Positions 14,201-30,660 of a stretch of 64,000 nt of DNA are shown here, in pieces. Origin of the DNA: a virus; IMG/VR virus record IMGVR_UViG_3300025030_000067, positions 26,535-90,534 of that record; one strand, given 5' to 3'. The notes beneath the pieces are model-generated. The model made no database searches, was not told the DNA's origin, and saw nothing but the letters and a program-made list of their open reading frames with translations. Made by a program: the position numbers and the translations under genes. Numbering within the stretch: position 1 is the stretch's first letter; every line of letters starts with the position of its first letter.

Positions 14201-15710
14201 GGTCGTCGAGATACACGTCCGCGATTGGCTTTCCGTCGTTGCTGTCTTCTGGTTGATCGGTTTTTTTGTTGATCTCGTCATATGGGATGTCGTTAAATCC
14301 GAGATAGCCTCGCAGTGCCGGTGTTTCCTGCCGAGTGGTGAAAATGATGATTTTCCATCCCGCTTGCTTAAGTGCCTGCATGGCTGCCGAGACTTGCGGC
14401 AACGGTTCTCCGAACGTCTCGGCCCCTTGCCATCCCTGCGAGTAATCGGCAATTACTCCGTCGAAGTCCACACAGATGGTCTTCTGGTGGATGCTTGCCG
14501 ACTTTCTGAGCGTGGTCTCTTCCCGCAGGCTTTTGAGGAAGCCGAGCAGCTCCTTGGCTCCCTTGGTCCTGGCTAGTCGTACCAGCGCCGTTTGCATATG
14601 CGACTTGACCGCCGCTGCGTCCCATCTGTCTACTGCTTCTGATCGAACACCTGTCCGGTTGAGCGCTGCCGCGATATCCTGTTCTTTGTATCCGTGGTCG
14701 AACCGACCAAGGCCGAATTTCATTTTGATTATGGCGGATGCAATCGGGTCGTCGAGTGCGTCCAGCTGCTCTGCGATACCGTTTGCGAGTCCTTCTTGTT
14801 TAGCTGCGTTCGATTCGTTGGCTGGTCCTACTGCGGCTTTTGCTGCGATATCGCGCATGCCTGTTTCGTAATCGTCTTCACCCTGGGTGTCGTATGACTG
14901 TTCTTCCTTCAGTCGGTCGTTGTTGGTGATCAGGTGGCGCATGGCCGCCGTCTTGCCGGTACGGGCTATCGTTTTGGCGACGTTGCTCTCTGATGCGGTG
15001 CCGGCCAGATAATTCTTGAACTCCTGTATGTCGGCATCGCTGGCGTTGGTTCCGGATGTTCTCAGGGCTCCGATCGCCGCCGTGATGTATTCGCTGTACA
15101 GTTCGTTCGCTGCCGGGTCATCGTTGTGGAGCACTCCGTTGGCGACAACGTAGTTCGGGTTATATCCGTTTCTGCTGGCCAGGTGTTTGAGCGTCCCTTT
15201 CATTCTGTCAACTATGGCCGGGTGCTGCAATATCTCCGCCTCTGGCATGCCAATGCGTTCCATCCCGACCAGCGCCCTGCGTGTGCTTTCCTCTGCCGTC
15301 ACACGGCCACCTGTGCCCTTTGGTGCTTTCTCCGCCGTATGCTCTTCTTCTGTCCAGATGTGGTCTCGGCTAATATCTTTTATATGCGGAGGGTTTAGTG
15401 TGTATCCTTCGCGTACTGGTTTAACTTCGTATCCGGTCTCGTGGCTGCCACCGACGATATGTCCGCGCTTTTTGCGGTTCATCTCCGGGGTGCGGTAGTA
15501 GATCTTTTCGCCATGTTTCGGCTCGGAGCTTTCTTTGCCTCGTACCTTCACCTTGCGTTGGTGTTCTGCGACTTGTGCGATGGCCCCTGACGCGAGGTGT
15601 CGTGTGCCTGCGTGTACCGTATGGACTTCTTCATGCTTGGGCGGCTGGTAGTCGAACAGGCTCATTTGTGATTTTCTGAGGTAGAAGAATTGCGTGATGT
15701 GTTTGATCAT
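11208..15710 (-). CDS. Large polyvalent internal-head protein (sigma region-4-like, HAD phosphatase and DdrB-like ParB domains)
   Basis: GGAGG before MIKHITQ (ATG 15710); IIKMKFGLG...EQDIAAAL (sigma-4-like HTH); ICVDFDGVI...YLDDRA (HAD); YPQEIQPRER...GAPIVGKDGAVESGNGRTIAL (DdrB-ParB). Confidence 0.75.
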   Translation of the reverse strand: MIKHITQFFYLRKSQMSLFDYQPPKHEEVHTVHAGTRHLASGAIAQVAEHQRKVKVRGKESSEPKHGEKIYYRTPEMNRKKRGHIVGGSHETGYEVKPVREGYTLNPPHIKDISRDHIWTEEEHTAEKAPKGTGGRVTAEESTRRALVGMERIGMPEAEILQHPAIVDRMKGTLKHLASRNGYNPNYVVANGVLHNDDPAANELYSEYITAAIGALRTSGTNASDADIQEFKNYLAGTASESNVAKTIARTGKTAAMRHLITNNDRLKEEQSYDTQGEDDYETGMRDIAAKAAVGPANESNAAKQEGLANGIAEQLDALDDPIASAIIKMKFGLGRFDHGYKEQDIAAALNRTGVRSEAVDRWDAAAVKSHMQTALVRLARTKGAKELLGFLKSLREETTLRKSASIHQKTICVDFDGVIADYSQGWQGAETFGEPLPQVSAAMQALKQAGWKIIIFTTRQETPALRGYLGFNDIPYDEINKKTDQPEDSNDGKPIADVYLDDRAIRFNNWEQALMDIDIFTKSLRADNLMDRSMLIKSHVKQYTRQDGSVVQEHDDKRVKKHQDVLKHQNEHGEEIHSGAKLKHGDQLAEHLKSRGWKEREVHQVKPIEGHKGGKKEDMPEHEEIKAKNRENGALQTAERGMKKMREAAAASDDPVSVLKNINTSRSNTYTAAIDDYREKLLKHYGHQVDRDSTATKYEKDGHSIIMSKDSDGHTVHFAGGDPSKDKEQISSLQGKKEVQSVDTGKKEPKFVMGKENKAYTAKMNEVSSKYALVESDDLTTSHTIQGHINRAYPQEIQPRERERLSSQMQMANMMNDIKPELFGAGSMAAHGAPIVGKDGAVESGNGRTIALTEAYKRGLADHYKEWLKGEADTFGIKPEDVEKMKNPVLVRVRSDDDKNTDRAEFAREANDTGNLGSSPAEQAWNDSARIDDSLLKKFAVDEDGEIYNDENMDFINGFLDKLGKNESAGLRDADGDPNKKCIERIQNAVFTKVYGSSMLTELQAESAKPKIRNILKALNGCVGDFAQIKGHDDLDVVPDMMEAIEYTLAHQNQSKAELEHTLKNAGSLDFTGDTPKFKTDHSVDMILAISDRAGSRNRLENVFRAISNGIKNEVASRENPEVDMFSGPAEPKNKEQVVKQALDKVNSSDDGVKKSLQRPALTHLIKSHGGSNGGIKRRGKVQEEVGTLEKSSCGCGHNGCCGQEESCSCKVQKEETQEQTRAGRQGRVSSETAAVRLLKSHVTAYDRTTASGALAHIDAHEDSRVKRYAIKLARTESSHQLHKLRQERFAHLPHWGTLDDHTKQRILDAEEEVHGAHTHWEKWKEENMPAKENKEPMADHLPGDHSGLLQVRLFKGRRREMYLIKSKRPKGDGSPKTVQEPVRKSCALSVAHILRKSQHSDHAAYTRTTASGATANVAQKGQPHHEMVKELHDAFERHDKKGRGGMGINTDHPDYSTPEKYAKTAKNILKYKGHERLGKQGSAEVGAMLERHIKQLEA
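11990..12190 (-). CDS. Candidate nested, out-of-frame Lys-rich small protein
   Basis: GGAGG-5nt-ATG inside the polyprotein ORF; 66 aa, contains LLKKA. Confidence 0.4.
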   Translation of the reverse strand: MAELSDEEKYKKKSELLKKALADADTMDVADKKKAAAAKSKKKKPKNKREQAGKDESAAKPQPFGS

Positions 15711-18354: not shown

Positions 18355-20589
18355 AACCGCAAGAGGTAGTCACTCGTCTGATGGAGATGCGCACGGAAGT
18401 CCTGCGCACGATGCCGCATGTTGGCTGTAGCCCGTTATTCAATCCGGAGACCGACCCTTTTTCTCCGTTTTGTAATTGCTACAAGCGTGACCTGCTTCGT
18501 GCTCTTTTGGCTGCCGAGGGCGATGTCCGTGTTGCTCTTGGCCTGGAGCCGTTCTGATGTCATTCCACCGTCCCGGCTTTTACCCGGTGAATGAAGGAGG
18601 TAATTGTAATGGTTGATCCGCGCATAAAACTGATGGTCGATAAGCTCTGGCTGGAGTGTGAGTATGGCCGTATCGATGATGATTGGACGTGTGGCTTCCT
18701 CATGGACATGAAGGCCCGTATCAAGCTTGACCGTCCCTTTTCTGACAAACAGATTGAGAAAATTGAGCAGCTCTTCGAGAGGTACTAAAAATGAGCAATT
18801 CACTTATTGAATATGATCATGCGGTAAAAGAGGCACGGGCTGGGCGTGGTCGGTCGGTTTCAGATGAAGAGCTGTATAACCACATGCTGAAAAACTATCC
18901 CGAGTTTTCCCGCCTACCGTCGCTGCAGGACGTTATAAAACAGGCAATTGGTGGTGGGTACGCCGTGCGCCATGATTCTGGTCGGCTGTTCCTACTGCCT
19001 GACCATACCAAGGGGGTTTTGATATGAGTCGCACACCTGGCTCGTGGTCTGTTCGTGAAGCTTATTCCAATGGAGAGCCATGTGGCTTTGTAGTCCATTC
19101 CGGAGCCATTGATATCTGTGAAGTTGCATCTCGGGATGATGCTGATTTATTGGCTGCTGCTCCAGATCTTTATGCGGCTTGTGACGAAGCTGACACTGCT
19201 TTGGCGGTTATCGGTATTTCCGAACTTACTCCGCAGGCTCGGGGCTGCGTTCGTGAGGCTTGGCCGATGGTCCAGGCTGCGAGAGCGAAGGCTAGGCCGG
19301 GGAGCGTTTACGCCGAGGTCATTGACGAGGCTCACAAGTCGGAGATATCGCGGCTCGATGCTGTCAATTCCGATCTGCAGGCGGCACTGAAAATGATGCT
19401 GGATTATGTCAATGGCCTTCCAACAATGCCTTGCATCAGTAAGGCTATGGTGGTAGTGGGGGCTGCGCGTAGCGCCTTGTCCAAGGCCGGGGGTTCCGTA
19501 TGAGCAAGCATAGTCCTGGACCGTGGGAGTATCGCCATTTTGCCGCATGTTCGACCGGGAACCATATTGAATCGGCGTCCGACATGGTGAAAATTGGCAG
19601 CAAAATGATTCATATTTACAACAAGCACGATGCCGTCCTTATCTCCGAGGCACCAAATATGCTTGGCATGCTGGAGCTTGCCTTGAAGTATCTGGAACAT
19701 CCAGACGTGCAGGCCATTCCTTTTGCTGCTCCAGCCGAGTGTGTTGCTGACCGTATGCGTGCTCTCATTGCAAAGGCAAAAGGCGGAAAGTCATGATTGC
19801 CGCACGCTTCCGCAATGGTCGACTGTCGTTGGCAGTGCCTTCTCGTGGTGAGTTTGGTGATTGCATTTGCGAGCACATGCTGACTTATGACGAATTATTA
19901 GATATCCAGCAGAGTATAGATTCGGCTTTGTCGGAATATTTGGTTTATAAACTCTCTGATGGCGACGCCGATGTTGCCTGATCCTTTTGATCCGTTTGTC
20001 AACGTTGCCGGCTTCGTCAGAGAGTGTTGGCGGTGTGGTCATGTCTTGACCCGGGAGAATGACCATCTGCACAAGTGTCCTGTATGTGATGATTCTCGGC
20101 TTGTCCCGTACGGCAGTAGATTTGAGCTAACGGCGGATTTCCTTTATTGATCTGATAGACAGCAGTAAATAGTCCTGATATAATTGCGGCATATTCCCTG
20201 GAGGGTGTATGCCGCTTTTGTGTCCGGACTGTGCATATTCTGCTGACGAAGACGAACCTTACTGCTCCCGCTGCGGTCATGATCTTGTGCGTTCGCTCCG
20301 GCAGCGCAGTGTCCCTGTTGTGGTTCCTCGACAGGAGGTGGTAGTTGATCGCTTCAAGGTCAACTGCGTCTGCTATGGAGAGGTTCTTCGGTTTGATCCG
20401 GTTGACGAAGCGATGTCGTCTGTATTTCGCTGCGCCAAGTTCCAGCAGCGTGTTGATTGCATCGGTTGCCCGATCTGCACCAAGTGTGGGCAGCTCAAGT
20501 GTACTTGCGGTTTTGTCGGCATATCCATCGATGTGAAAATAAAAGGCACCGTCATCGAGACAGTGCCTTTGCGTGATCGGCTGGAATAG
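18351..20589 (+). other. Cluster of about 8 small hypothetical ORFs (18351-18557, 18591-18788, 18791-19027, 19024-19503, 19500-19796, 19793-19981, 19959-20150, 20209-20589)
   Basis: Tightly coupled ORFs with ATGA overlaps; two carry the phage TPGPW...LIAAAP motif; two are Cys-rich. Confidence 0.55.
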
Positions 20590-27334: not shown

Positions 27335-27482
27335 TTCACATCTCCGTGTGCGTCCCGATTATTCTCTGTGCCCAGGACGGTCGGAGTTCCGTCTTTTCTC
27401 CCGCTAAAGATAGGGCACAGCATGTCTTGTTAGACAATACTGTGCCCTAATTTGTAGCGTATATCAAACTGTTTGCCGCTGG

Positions 27483-27745: not shown

Positions 27746-27863
27746 TTGGGCGCTTTGTAGATCTGGTTTTCTAATTATGCTTGGCACGCTTCCTTGTATT
27801 GGTGTTCTTATGTGGAGTGGCTCGCTACGTCAACGTGGTTTTCTTTTGCACCTTGGCTATGCT
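27746..27863 (-). repeat. TIGR-like array, downstream part (3 units of 36 nt)
   Basis: On + strand TGGCWCGCT-type repeats at 27746, 27782, 27818, 27854 alternate with TGGTKTTCT at 27764, 27800, 27836, separated by unique 9-mers. Confidence 0.8.
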
Positions 27864-28864
27864 GCTTGCTTCTCCCCGCCATGGACGTATCCCAGCTTCG
27901 CCTCGTGGTAGGGTAGCGACACCGGCAGACCCTCAATGGTCCTCCAAGCTGTGTAGAGGTCGATCAGGAACATCTTGACCATGTAGCGCATCGCGGCGTT
28001 GTGTCGGTGCCCCTTCTCGCTCACGGTTTTCTCTTTGCCCTTGTCGTTGGTTTCGGTTCGGTCCTTCCAGTTGGTGTGATTTTCCAGACGGTTCTTGTAG
28101 TCGTCATATATCGTCCGGTATTTGCTCTCACCGGCTCTCAGGAAGCTGCTGGCGAGCACTCCCATCAGTTTTGTTTTGAGGAATGGGTTGAATGTGATTC
28201 CGTTCCTGATCGCTGAGTTACCTTCTTTGTCGATATACGCTACAGTCTGGAGATGCTCTTTCCTTCGTGATCGGCCTTTGCCATCATCTGCGCAGTCGAG
28301 TCCTGCATACTTCCAGATGCTGCTCGGGTGTCTGGACTTGGTGATGTCGATCTCGCTGATGATCACTCCTGCCATGGCTGGGCCTATGCCTCTGACGCCT
28401 TCGAGGAATTCGACGTATATCGGGTAATCTTCGAGTATCTTGCCGAGCATCCGGAAGTGCCGGTTCTCTTGGGATTCGAGGTCTTTGTATTGCGATATCA
28501 GGCAGAGCTCCGTGTAGTCACTGATCACTGGATTTCCCTTGAATTTCTTTTTGCTGGGCAGGCCGTCTGCCGTCAGTAGTGAGTAGTGTTTATCGAGCAG
28601 TTGGGACACAAGCCCTGCGATCTTCTTTTCTTCTTTTTCCGTCTGTTCCAGCTCCGCGACTGCTCCGGTGGTGACCAGTTTGTTGGCATTCCGTATCCGT
28701 GCCAGCAGTTGCTGCGATTCGGCGTCGAGTCCTTCTTCTGGTTCGCTTGGTGCCTGGCCGAGTTTGGCCTTGAAGTTGCCGACTATCCTGTTTCCGGTTT
28801 GGATGCGGAGCTTCTGGATGTCGTAGCTCCCTCTTACGATGGTTTTCAGATTTCCTGCTGACAT
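27857..28864 (-). CDS. Nop-domain, IS110-related RNA-binding protein without a nuclease domain (TasA-like)
   Basis: FLEGVRGIGPAMAGVIISEIDI...SSIWKYAGL...FNPFLKTKL...GHRHNAAMRYMVKMFL; no N-terminal DEDD RuvC; no IS110 catalytic SG loop; flanked by 36-nt arrays. Confidence 0.8.
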   Translation of the reverse strand: MSAGNLKTIVRGSYDIQKLRIQTGNRIVGNFKAKLGQAPSEPEEGLDAESQQLLARIRNANKLVTTGAVAELEQTEKEEKKIAGLVSQLLDKHYSLLTADGLPSKKKFKGNPVISDYTELCLISQYKDLESQENRHFRMLGKILEDYPIYVEFLEGVRGIGPAMAGVIISEIDITKSRHPSSIWKYAGLDCADDGKGRSRRKEHLQTVAYIDKEGNSAIRNGITFNPFLKTKLMGVLASSFLRAGESKYRTIYDDYKNRLENHTNWKDRTETNDKGKEKTVSEKGHRHNAAMRYMVKMFLIDLYTAWRTIEGLPVSLPYHEAKLGYVHGGEKQAA

Positions 28865-28886
28865 GATGCCTCCTTGGTTGGTTTGG

Positions 28887-29292
28887 TGGTTCCTCTCTTT
28901 AGTAGTGGTTTTCTTAAACCGAATGGCTCGCTATTGTCTGTTGGTTTTCTTAATGTTAATGACTCGCTCTACGTATCTGTGTTTCTTTTGATGAATGGCT
29001 CGCTTCGTTATGCTGGTTTTATCTTCTTTATCGGCTCGCTCACTACATTTGGGTTTCTTTTCTGGAATGACTCGCTTCGGTCGTTTGGGTTTCTCCCATT
29101 TCTTGGCACGCTCAATATTGCTGGGTATCTCTTTTTTTCTGGCTCACTTCGTCAGGATGGGTTTCTTCTGCGTTTTGGTTCGCTCTTTCATCATGGTGTT
29201 ATTACAAGTGCTGGCTCGCTGTCTTCACTTGGGTTTCTTTTTGAATTTGGCTCGCTATGAAAAGATGGTTTCCTTTCTCATTATGGCTTCTC
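28887..29292 (-). repeat. TIGR-like array, upstream part (11 units of 36 nt)
   Basis: Edge-type repeats TGGCTCGCT (+) every 36 nt from 28924 to 29248, with degenerate ends at 28887 and 29284; loop-type TGGKTTTCT offset by 18 nt; all spacers 9 nt and distinct. Confidence 0.9.
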
Positions 29293-29327
29293 TTTCTATA
29301 AGTCTCCGTCACAGAATGATGCCGATG

Positions 29328-30068
29328 CTACGGAATCGTTATTTTGTGCTTGCCAAATACCGGGTTGATCTTAATCGCGCACCATGCGATTGCGTATAGC
29401 AGCTTCGATGTAATCCACCAGCAGCGGTCAGTAGTGTCGTTCAAGTTGATTGCCCATTGTTGGTATTCTTCCCGATTGACGATGCCGTTGTATCCGCCGC
29501 CATTGTTGTTTATCCCTGGGCCTTGCCAAATGAAAACGGCGTGATCGTCGGAACGGAAGTATGACCGAAACTTTCTGGCGAATGGCTGTATCTCCGGGGT
29601 GTAGACGAATGGGCTTGTGTCGTCGTATAGGCCGATGATCGGGAGTATCTTCTTGCCCTTGTACAGCACTTTGATGAAGTGCGACGATATCGCGATGTTC
29701 AGGTAATTCTTGAACTTCGTCATTTTATCCGAGTAATAGATGTCCATCATGTACCAGTCGAAGTTGGTGGAGCACTGCTGTTCTATTTCTTCGATCAGTG
29801 CGATCGCCAGCGGCTTGTTTGTTCTGGCTCTGTACCAATTGATCTTGTCGTCCTGGTCGCGTATGGAAATCTTCTGTACGTCCGGTTCGTCAAAGAGGTA
29901 GTAGGCAATGATCGTGCGGTGTTCTTTGTATTCGCTTGAGACCACTGCCATGCCGATCTTCGCCATGAGCTCCATTTCTTCCACCGTGAAGTCGCCCAGC
30001 ACGGTGTTGAAGCCCAGTCTCTTGATTTCCAGAAAATCCGCTCCGGATGATGCGTACACAATTTTCAT
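29328..30068 (-). CDS. Putative glycoside-hydrolase-like TIM-barrel protein
   Basis: LGFNTV, IIAYYLFDEPD, FDWYMMDIYY patterns. Confidence 0.5.
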   Translation of the reverse strand: MKIVYASSGADFLEIKRLGFNTVLGDFTVEEMELMAKIGMAVVSSEYKEHRTIIAYYLFDEPDVQKISIRDQDDKINWYRARTNKPLAIALIEEIEQQCSTNFDWYMMDIYYSDKMTKFKNYLNIAISSHFIKVLYKGKKILPIIGLYDDTSPFVYTPEIQPFARKFRSYFRSDDHAVFIWQGPGINNNGGGYNGIVNREEYQQWAINLNDTTDRCWWITSKLLYAIAWCAIKINPVFGKHKITIP

Positions 30069-30069
30069 G

Positions 30070-30399
30070 TCACTGTTCTCCGTGGTAGAAGATTGGTATG
30101 CCGCGAGTGCTTGCGTGCTGATGCTCCATGACGCTGCCGGGGCTGTCTCTCCACCCTGGCACCATCACTACGGCGTCGCATTTGTCGAGTAGCGGGATGC
30201 AGACCTTGCGCATCCAGTCGCCATGCTGCATGTGGGCGAACTGCGGGTCTTCATCCCAGAAGGCGGTTATTCTGTGAGGGATGATCGGGGCGAATCCAAG
30301 GTGCATCATGTGCTTGCCGACTACTTCGGCGGCGTCAATGTTGGCTTGGACTTCTTCTCTGGTGGGGGCTGTGTACTTTCCTGCGACGTAGCAAATCAT
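30070..30399 (-). CDS. DUF4406/nucleoside 2-deoxyribosyltransferase-like protein
   Basis: CYVAGKYT...CDAVVMVPGWRDSPGSVMEH. Confidence 0.7.
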   Translation of the reverse strand: MICYVAGKYTAPTREEVQANIDAAEVVGKHMMHLGFAPIIPHRITAFWDEDPQFAHMQHGDWMRKVCIPLLDKCDAVVMVPGWRDSPGSVMEHQHASTRGIPIFYHGEQ

Positions 30400-30660
30400 T
30401 TCTTTCTCCTGGATCGTTTTTCGTTGCTGTGGAGTGCTGCGTGGGATTTGTTGCAATGTTCTCGTTTTTCCCAGTTGTGGTCCAGTTCTTGTTCTCCTTG
30501 AACCAGTTCAGTGCCGCACCATAGGCAGACCTTTTGATTGGTCACTTATCTCTCCTGATGGTTCCGGTCTTTTTTAGTTTCCGCCGTTCGTGCCGGTTGG
30601 CCGGTGCAGTCGGTGCCGGCACAACAAGCAATAGGTTGTTGAATCCTCCAAGGCACACCG

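Follow-up and report, generated by a model that had tools for sequence, protein, structure and literature searches.

The dual-repeat type of TIGR-TasA system was defined by Faure et al. (2025, Science, PMC12045711), and in the account of Xu et al. (2026, bioRxiv 10.64898/2026.09.09.750476) the family now comprises 20,096 tas loci and 4,126 dual-repeat arrays. Arrays flanking tas on both sides are described as common (Faure et al., 2025, PMC12045711; Xu et al., 2026), and a terminator is reported to follow typical arrays (Faure et al., 2025). SpTasH is reported to process its own guides by means of Y289 and H296 (PMC13421893), and a Y/H loop is given as a mark of the dual-repeat systems (Xu et al., 2026). 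The stem-loop protein MbTasA has been presented as an RNA-guided repressor, with repression of reporters and one chromosomal gene in E. coli (Xu et al., 2026). Here, we analyze a 64,000-nucleotide (nt) stretch, referred to as the window, that is part of the 90,534-bp virus record IMGVR_UViG_3300025030_000067 of an uncultured phage (positions 26,535 to 90,534 of that record). It contains a locus that very probably represents a TIGR-TasA system of the dual-repeat type, carried by a tailed phage and with guides that would bind DNA without cutting it. The locus consists of a gene for a nuclease-less Tas protein and two arrays on the strand of that gene, with the following features in window positions:

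27857..28864, minus strand: tasA, encoding a nuclease-less Tas protein of 335 amino acids, Nop-type RNA-binding by homology; intact open reading frame (ORF) with start codon ATG at 28864
27881..27910, minus strand: codons for Y319-H328 (PYHEAKLGYVH) in the C-terminal stretch, located by the SpTasH alignment and family conservation
28897..29292, minus strand: upstream TIGR array, 11 units of exactly 36 nt, from sequence reading and pattern scan
28887..28896, minus strand: degenerate closing edge AGAGGAACCA of the upstream array, 22 nt before the tasA start codon
28869..28875, minus strand: ribosome-binding site AAGGAGG of tasA, from sequence reading
27755..27862, minus strand: downstream TIGR array, 3 units of 36 nt, from sequence reading and pattern scan
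27746..27754, minus strand: 3'-truncated closing edge AGCGCCCAA of the downstream array
28874..29260, plus strand: spurious hydrophobic ORF of 128 amino acids that arises from the 12-codon period of the array and is not a gene

On the minus strand, each unit reads 9-nt edge repeat AGCGAGCCA, 9-nt spacer A, 9-nt loop repeat AGAAAMCCA and 9-nt spacer B. Both kinds of repeat begin with AG at the position of box D and end with CCA, corresponding to box C, and the loop repeat represents an A-rich tetraloop closed by G2:C7. The arrays are bordered by incomplete edges: the first edge of the upstream array is degenerate on the 5' side with only its 3' part kept (GAGAAGCCA), and the 5'-truncated first edge of the downstream array (GCATAGCCA) includes the tasA stop codon TAG (27857-27859). 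An initial annotation, made from the letters of the window, had given the coordinates, the 11 plus 3 units and three example spacer pairs correctly, the latter being the reverse complements of units 28968, 29004 and 29184, and parsing of the 14 units bears out its statement that all 28 spacers are different. The dual-repeat, dual-spacer organization with an exact 36-nt period on the coding strand, also proposed there, is far from random. Allowing up to three mismatches, an edge-N9-loop pattern matched 14 times in the window with 0.27 matches expected, and none of 100 shuffles got 14; 12 of the matches reside in the two arrays and two elsewhere, both of the latter with three mismatches. A stricter full-unit pattern retrieved the same 12 units and one 3-mismatch match from the whole 90,534-bp genome (0-2 matches in five shuffles), and pattern scans with shuffles brought no scattered solitary guides above chance elsewhere in that genome. 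Tandem Repeats Finder missed the array because the spacers differ, and no Rfam family matched on the arrays. CRISPR-Cas was rejected as a candidate, as two 9-nt repeats alternate with 9-nt spacers in place of a single repeat of 25-36 nt and PADLOC yielded no match for the TasA protein.

Open plus-strand frames of 128 and 134 amino acids run across the upstream array and might be taken to encode a periodic hydrophobic protein with a 12-residue repeat. The chance that they do so appears negligible to us, given that the variable 9-mers are wholly replaced in relatives, that spacers of 8, 10 or 11 nt occurring in some of these relatives shift the frame, and that the arrays are always situated on the tas strand. 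Translation of the array and its conservation as protein, which would have spoken against the original proposal, is rejected by the same complete replacement of the spacers and by the 10-nt spacers that break the frame.

The protein passes the NCBIfam model NF052498 ('TIGR-Tas system RNA-guided endonuclease') with 134 bits versus a cut-off of 100 (E 6.9e-39), the alignment spanning TasA residues 7-308 and model positions 2-215 of 215. When a profile built from 41 family members was compared with solved structures, PDB entry 9mty (E 1.1e-20) and SpTasH (21kl/9w03, E 1.2e-15) were found, both matches being confined to the C-terminal Nop part; with the single TasA sequence and the 41-member profile as queries, nothing else in the solved-structure search fell below E 0.1. 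We infer that 9mty is TaTasR from its 331 amino acids, which is the length given for TaTasR by Faure et al. (2025). The conserved N-terminal motif of the family, starting at residue 5-16, lines up with residue 123 of TasR and likewise with IS110 model position 123, in both cases just past the nuclease domain. HNH and RuvC Pfam domains found no match in TasA or in any of the 41 family members. The conserved core already begins at residue 5, equivalent to residue 123 of TasR; the RuvC/HNH lobe is therefore without a counterpart, and this is what defines a TasA. The description of the gene product as an IS110/Nop-like protein without RuvC and HNH was thus accurate, as were the other elements of the initial annotation that sequence could test. 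Of the family positions, 49 invariant and about 70 nearly invariant ones are preserved in TasA, which also contains a 38-residue helical insertion (approximately residues 68-105) common to only part of the family. The ESM Atlas model of TasA is a confident one, with a predicted template modelling (pTM) score of 0.75, and its neighbours are viral clusters without names.

Several labels point at an IS110-family transposase accompanied by a non-coding bridge RNA. Pfam PF02371 (IS110 C-terminal region) matches TasA right at threshold (21.4 versus 21.3 bits), PHROG 4285 carries the label 'transposase' and homologues are named transposase. On the other side, the equivalog NF033542 reaches 27.4 bits versus a cut-off of 140 and covers model positions 123-275 only; as this alignment begins at position 123, the DEDD nuclease domain is absent. 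PF01548 does not match the protein, the flanking RNA is a 14-unit array and not a two-loop bridge RNA, and the locus is syntenic in a diverged relative, the provirus G001 described below. We consider this reading to have virtually no probability: with the catalytic domain missing, an IS110 transposase is ruled out. The prediction that the locus would be misannotated as a transposase plus a hydrophobic ORF is correct for the Pfam, PHROG and NCBI labels, for ORF034 of Ralstonia phage phiRSL1 and for the 128-amino-acid ORF, but it has been overtaken in NCBIfam, where the TIGR-Tas model now catches the protein.

In the C-terminal stretch, Y319 is aligned to the SpTasH processing residue Y289, and each of the two residues Y319 and H328 is retained by at least 90% of the 41 family members. 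From these alignments, a Tyr319/His328 processing dyad is plausible, not proven.

Relatives of TasA are numerous: of the candidate proteins that were scored, 2,808 reach E <= 0.001, and 27 loci in IMG/VR encode a TasA relative. Chains with the CCA period of 18 were detected in 21 of 28 loci (the 27 from IMG/VR plus phiRSL1), all of them on the tas strand and none opposite. When genome_contigs loci are added, arrays are present at 27 of 34 loci, again on the tas strand, while the seven loci without arrays are partial matches or located at contig ends. Away from tas, six complete or near-complete phage genomes are devoid of such chains. Across the clade, the edge repeat is nearly constant (AGCGAGCCA, AACGAGTCA, AGTGAACCA and others) and the loop repeat varies in its middle. 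Among 470 unique units, A1 is found in 97% of both repeats, G2 in 82% of edge and 95% of loop repeats, C8 in 99% of both and A9 in 87% of edge and 88% of loop repeats. The edge pair 2:7 is G:C in 270 units, G:U in 109, A:U in 60 and A:C in nine, and the edge pair 3:6 is C:G in 356, U:A in 60, U:G in 23 and C:A in eight; these unit counts are not independent events, and each of the covarying variants occurs in at least three loci. Shifted control pairs in the edge repeat are mostly unpaired, and loop positions 3-6 are A/C-rich and unpaired. On the level of sequence, edge pairs 2:7 and 3:6 covary through compensatory changes with G:U intermediates, and this pattern fits the short pairs between the tigRNA ends and the G2:C7-closed tetraloop as presented by Faure et al. 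(2025, PMC12045711). Neighbouring genes of the window locus, i.e. those for HNH, the 80-amino-acid ORF and the 246-amino-acid ORF, are not kept beside tas in the relatives. As these neighbours do not travel with tas, the module consists of the protein and its arrays.

Nine further loci (L023-L026 and L131-L135) match only residues 5-68 of TasA, with about 61% identity. For L023-L026, the four of these nine partial-match loci that were examined, no CCA-period array was seen. All nine may be Tas relatives with another C-terminal part or another array type.

Among full relatives, the closest is the 89.8-kb record G001, which is classified as a provirus and is collinear with the window phage at 66-75% nucleotide identity. 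Its Tas protein is 76% identical to TasA of the window and 100% identical to an NCBI protein named 'transposase [Oryzomonas rubra]'; from this assignment to Oryzomonas rubra, a host of the Geobacteraceae type is deduced for the lineage. The tas module resides at a similar genome position in the window phage and in G001, and the arrays of G001 feature the same two repeats in 28 units (14 + 14) that have zero spacers in common with the window. In both genomes the spacers are GC-poor and A-rich (35% GC versus 52% for the genome in the window phage, 35% versus 55% in G001). The metagenome contig L059 encodes a tas gene 91.6% identical to that of the window at the nucleotide level; this similarity ends exactly at the first downstream edge repeat, and every spacer differs.

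A finer view is offered by the IMG/VR contigs L005-L008, the Tas proteins of which are 57% identical to TasA of the window. L007 and L005 have flanks of approximately 96% identity and only five array units in common, namely the first two, one internal unit and two near the end, with unshared blocks in between. L005 and L006 show 99.5% identity, and a 36-nt indel separates their arrays. Several half-guides are re-paired, such that one spacer B occurs with a different spacer A and vice versa. The L005-L008 arrays suggest that blocks are exchanged and that crossovers take place at both repeat types, as opposed to one-sided addition of units. In oil-sands metagenome run X6, two short contigs share stretches of the upstream array (window 28982-29063 and 29177-29376), and in one of them, the spacer A of unit 29004 (TTCATCAAA) and a portion of the loop recur, after which both spacer B and the following unit deviate. 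Possibly, this contig is a natural half-guide recombinant, although the sequencing depth of only 2-3 makes it a weak case. Among the arrays of G004 and G005 (L047, L052-L053), one spacer A can be found twice within a single array with different B spacers. For example, spacer A GAAACTCAA occurs twice in G004, each time with a different spacer B, and spacer A AACGTTGAG is present in both arrays of G005, where its B spacers agree in the first four bases. Such repeated spacers A suggest duplication of units followed by divergence or re-pairing.

We tentatively propose that the guides are renewed by recombination at the 9-nt repeats and not by CRISPR-like addition at a leader end, that blocks are swapped, that crossovers in the loop re-pair spacers combinatorially and that the spacers may target AT-rich regulatory DNA, be it in the Geobacteraceae-type host or in rival prophages; taken as a whole, this is a possible scenario, albeit one that we advance with considerable reserve. 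If it is true, crossovers in the loop repeat would join an old spacer A to a new spacer B and thereby create new 18-bp specificities, and O. rubra, the name given by NCBI to the carrier of the collinear 28-guide provirus, could as a native host provide the first natural targets of a dual-repeat TasA.

The full-length Tas homologue of the cultured jumbo phage phiRSL1 (L028, NC_010811.2) is ORF034, which is annotated as 'transposase' and exhibits 36.6% identity over 99% of the query. The Tas/array region of this phage comprises approximately positions 3540-4830 of L028, i.e. 14258-15580 of the record. ORF034 is followed by about 1.3 kb that are empty in the annotation and represent a TIGR-like array; its roughly 35-37 units are made up of 8-nt repeats (AGYG..CC / AGNC..CC) and spacers of about 10 nt. 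The small upstream ORFs 031-033 may be array artefacts as well. Neither 'RSL1' nor 'Ralstonia' occurs in the main texts of Faure et al. (2025) or Xu et al. (2026).

By analogy with published systems, array, tasA and array would be transcribed as a single minus-strand RNA. TasA dimers would bind this precursor and cut it in the middle of the edge repeats via the conserved Tyr319/His328 stretch, which would release up to 14 tigRNAs of 36 nt with the layout (A)GCCA-spacerA-AGAAAMCCA-spacerB-AGCG(A). As both ends of the tasA message fall within edge repeats, its trimming in the course of guide processing is also conceivable, which is speculation on our part. Each ribonucleoprotein is predicted to bind an 18-bp DNA site, with each spacer pairing with a different strand and no need for a protospacer adjacent motif. 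Such a site would read, on one strand, spacer A and then the reverse complement of spacer B, a geometry derived from the 8-nt 3' overhangs and the C-5 rule reported by Faure et al. (2025); of the two spacer orders suggested in the initial annotation, the first would agree with it. As a nuclease is lacking, DNA occupied and bent by the complex would be blocked for transcription or replication.

The own 90,534-bp genome contains no site with 0-2 mismatches in either of two geometries and with gaps of 0-2. When all 116 guides of the six phage genomes were compared with all six genomes, zero sites were present at 0-1 mismatch. At two mismatches, seven sites outside arrays were counted versus a mean of 2.49 (standard deviation 1.37) for shuffled partners; one of 100 shuffles got seven, and a wrong-geometry control gave four. 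We do not regard this excess as established. In phiRSL1, 35 parsed guides found zero sites at 0-1 mismatch in the phage's own 231-kb genome and one site at two mismatches (0-1 in five shuffles). Exact 18-mers of three of the 14 window guides were scanned against IMG/VR and occurred in zero, two and two contigs, respectively; each pair of contigs is one phage sampled twice, the two phages having GC contents of 44% and 33%, and by a rough estimate of the size of the collection such matches are about at chance level. For the 9-mers of half-sites, the own genomes of the six phages show neither depletion nor enrichment. The targets are most likely to be sought outside the phage itself, on the host chromosome or on rival mobile elements of a Geobacteraceae-type host. 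Host defence genes or rival phages as targets are pure inference. Natural targets of TIGR guides and the acquisition of spacers are stated as open questions by Faure et al. (2025, PMC12045711) and Xu et al. (2026, bioRxiv 10.64898/2026.09.09.750476), and our literature search found no paper reporting natural targets.

Some observations weigh against a working dual-repeat TIGR-TasA system that silences DNA. The search of phage sequences with 18-mers, recommended at the outset as a check, came back with nothing beyond chance, be it in the own genome, the five relatives, phiRSL1 or, for the three guides scanned, IMG/VR. A minus-strand scan revealed no sigma-70-like promoter or terminator near the arrays. 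Several repeats depart from box C (AGCGAGCCG, AGAAACACA, AGCGAGTCA), and SpTasH H296 aligns with Tyr326 of TasA, the conserved His328 being located two residues further on. In the published accounts considered here, repression is shown for stem-loop TasA (MbTasA) only and not for a dual-repeat phage TasA. The remark in the initial annotation that the role of nuclease-less TasA is poorly understood is, in part, outdated, as repression by stem-loop TasA was shown in 2026 (Xu et al., 2026).

Degenerate repeats, the negative promoter/terminator scan and the lack of a target in the sequences searched could be read as signs of a decaying or silent relic, in which an intact-looking ORF persists and the arrays are no longer expressed or processed. 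We judge this very unlikely. The ORF is intact and keeps the 49 invariant and about 70 nearly invariant positions, the period is exact over 14 units, and the module recurs at a similar position in G001 despite divergence to 66-75% nucleotide identity, with its spacers renewed. A genuine TIGR-TasA could also have a job other than transcriptional repression, with the RNA-guided DNA bend serving to block replication, segregate plasmids or phages, help an integrase or exclude rival elements, or with regulation of the phage's own genes via imperfect sites, options that appear in the discussion of Faure et al. (2025, PMC12045711). Since the closest full relative, G001, is a provirus, roles linked to lysogeny are possible, and the weak excess of 2-mismatch sites in related phage genomes (seven versus a shuffle mean of 2.49) is a further point in favour of such alternatives. 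Against such roles, no ParB-like or integrase gene is linked to the module, the neighbours do not travel with tas, zero sites with 0-1 mismatch exist in any own genome and the wrong geometry likewise gives four sites. All in all, we think a role other than repression rather doubtful, albeit a good deal more probable than decay, and continue to regard the locus as a dual-repeat TIGR-TasA module with guides for DNA binding.

The carrier of this module is a tailed phage. Genes for a portal protein, an HNH endonuclease and a nucleoside deoxyribosyltransferase-like protein are present near the tasA locus, and the next gene begins 21 nt past the closing truncated edge of the downstream array. The phage has no close relative among deposited phages. 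Its DNA occurs in sediment and groundwater metagenomes, which are a possible source, with the contigs of metagenome runs X4 and X6 covering only parts of the window. The nucleoside 2-deoxyribosyltransferase-like gene is located upstream of the tas module in the window (30070-30456) and downstream of it in G001 (19373-19684). This position on opposite sides indicates that the module moved or was re-inserted locally within the lineage. At 27353-27420 on the minus strand, the int-alpA RNA motif of Rfam (RF02996) is present (38.8 bits versus a gathering score of 35.8, E 8.4e-06), with the HNH endonuclease gene on one side and the 80-amino-acid ORF that follows the downstream array on the other.

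A further feature of this lineage is the 13-bp box TGTAGCGYATRTC, for which 19 sites with at most one mismatch were counted in the window versus 0.2 expected. There are 25 in the whole genome, 20 in the collinear provirus G001 and 0-1 in four other Tas-carrying phages. Examples are found at 27453-27465 (plus strand) and at 28232-28244 (minus strand), the latter being an exact copy in sense orientation within tasA, about 370 nt ahead of the downstream array. G001 retains the box at the homologous tas codons (QTVAYID) with one mismatch. The box may be a promoter or operator specific to this lineage and may affect the timing of expression of tasA and the downstream array.

Among described systems, FpTIGR of Flavonifractor plautii, judged from its published description, resembles the window locus in being a solo nuclease-less Nop-type Tas carried by a tailed phage, with alternating 9-nt edge and loop repeats, 9-nt spacers, a 36-nt unit, arrays on both sides on the tas strand, a 5'-truncated first edge and a 3'-truncated last edge. 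TaTasR and SpTasH (the latter from Salicola phage CGphi29; PDB 9w03, 21kl) share the homologous Nop part, the CCA box C, the A-rich loop, the extra covarying edge pair and the processing Tyr, whereas TasA of the window is devoid of RuvC/HNH, has its His two residues on from SpTasH H296 and contains the 38-residue insertion. The nuclease-less condition is shared with the stem-loop proteins MbTasA and PlTasA, from which the window system differs in its dual-repeat type and in the presence of the Y/H loop residues. For the stem-loop protein PlTasA, RNA-guided DNA binding and repression were reportedly shown by Guan and colleagues in 2026. IS110 RNA-guided recombinases and the Nop5 protein of box C/D small nucleolar ribonucleoproteins have a distantly related RNA-binding domain (PF02371, weak similarity to the IS110 model), and the window locus, unlike IS110 recombinases, is without a DEDD domain, bridge RNA or transposon ends. 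With regard to the arrays, box D is UG in the TasR arrays, including those of TaTasR, as presented by Faure et al. (2025), and AG here; typical published arrays are followed by a terminator, while the minus-strand scan found no terminator-like site after the array here; and, differently from published dual-repeat arrays, the upstream closing edge directly adjoins the tasA ribosome-binding site, with the stop codon contained in the first edge of the downstream array.

The locus itself changes little, being a textbook-clean phage example of a published family. Its practical value lies in a pair of phage genomes, complete and collinear, that agree in their repeats and have no guide in common, and the O. 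rubra-linked provirus G001 and the cultured phage phiRSL1 offer native-host settings for the finding of targets. Compared with what has been described, it is a known kind of system (Faure et al., 2025; Xu et al., 2026), and the differences, i.e. the AG box D, the terminator that was not found and the arrays abutting the coding sequence, are minor.

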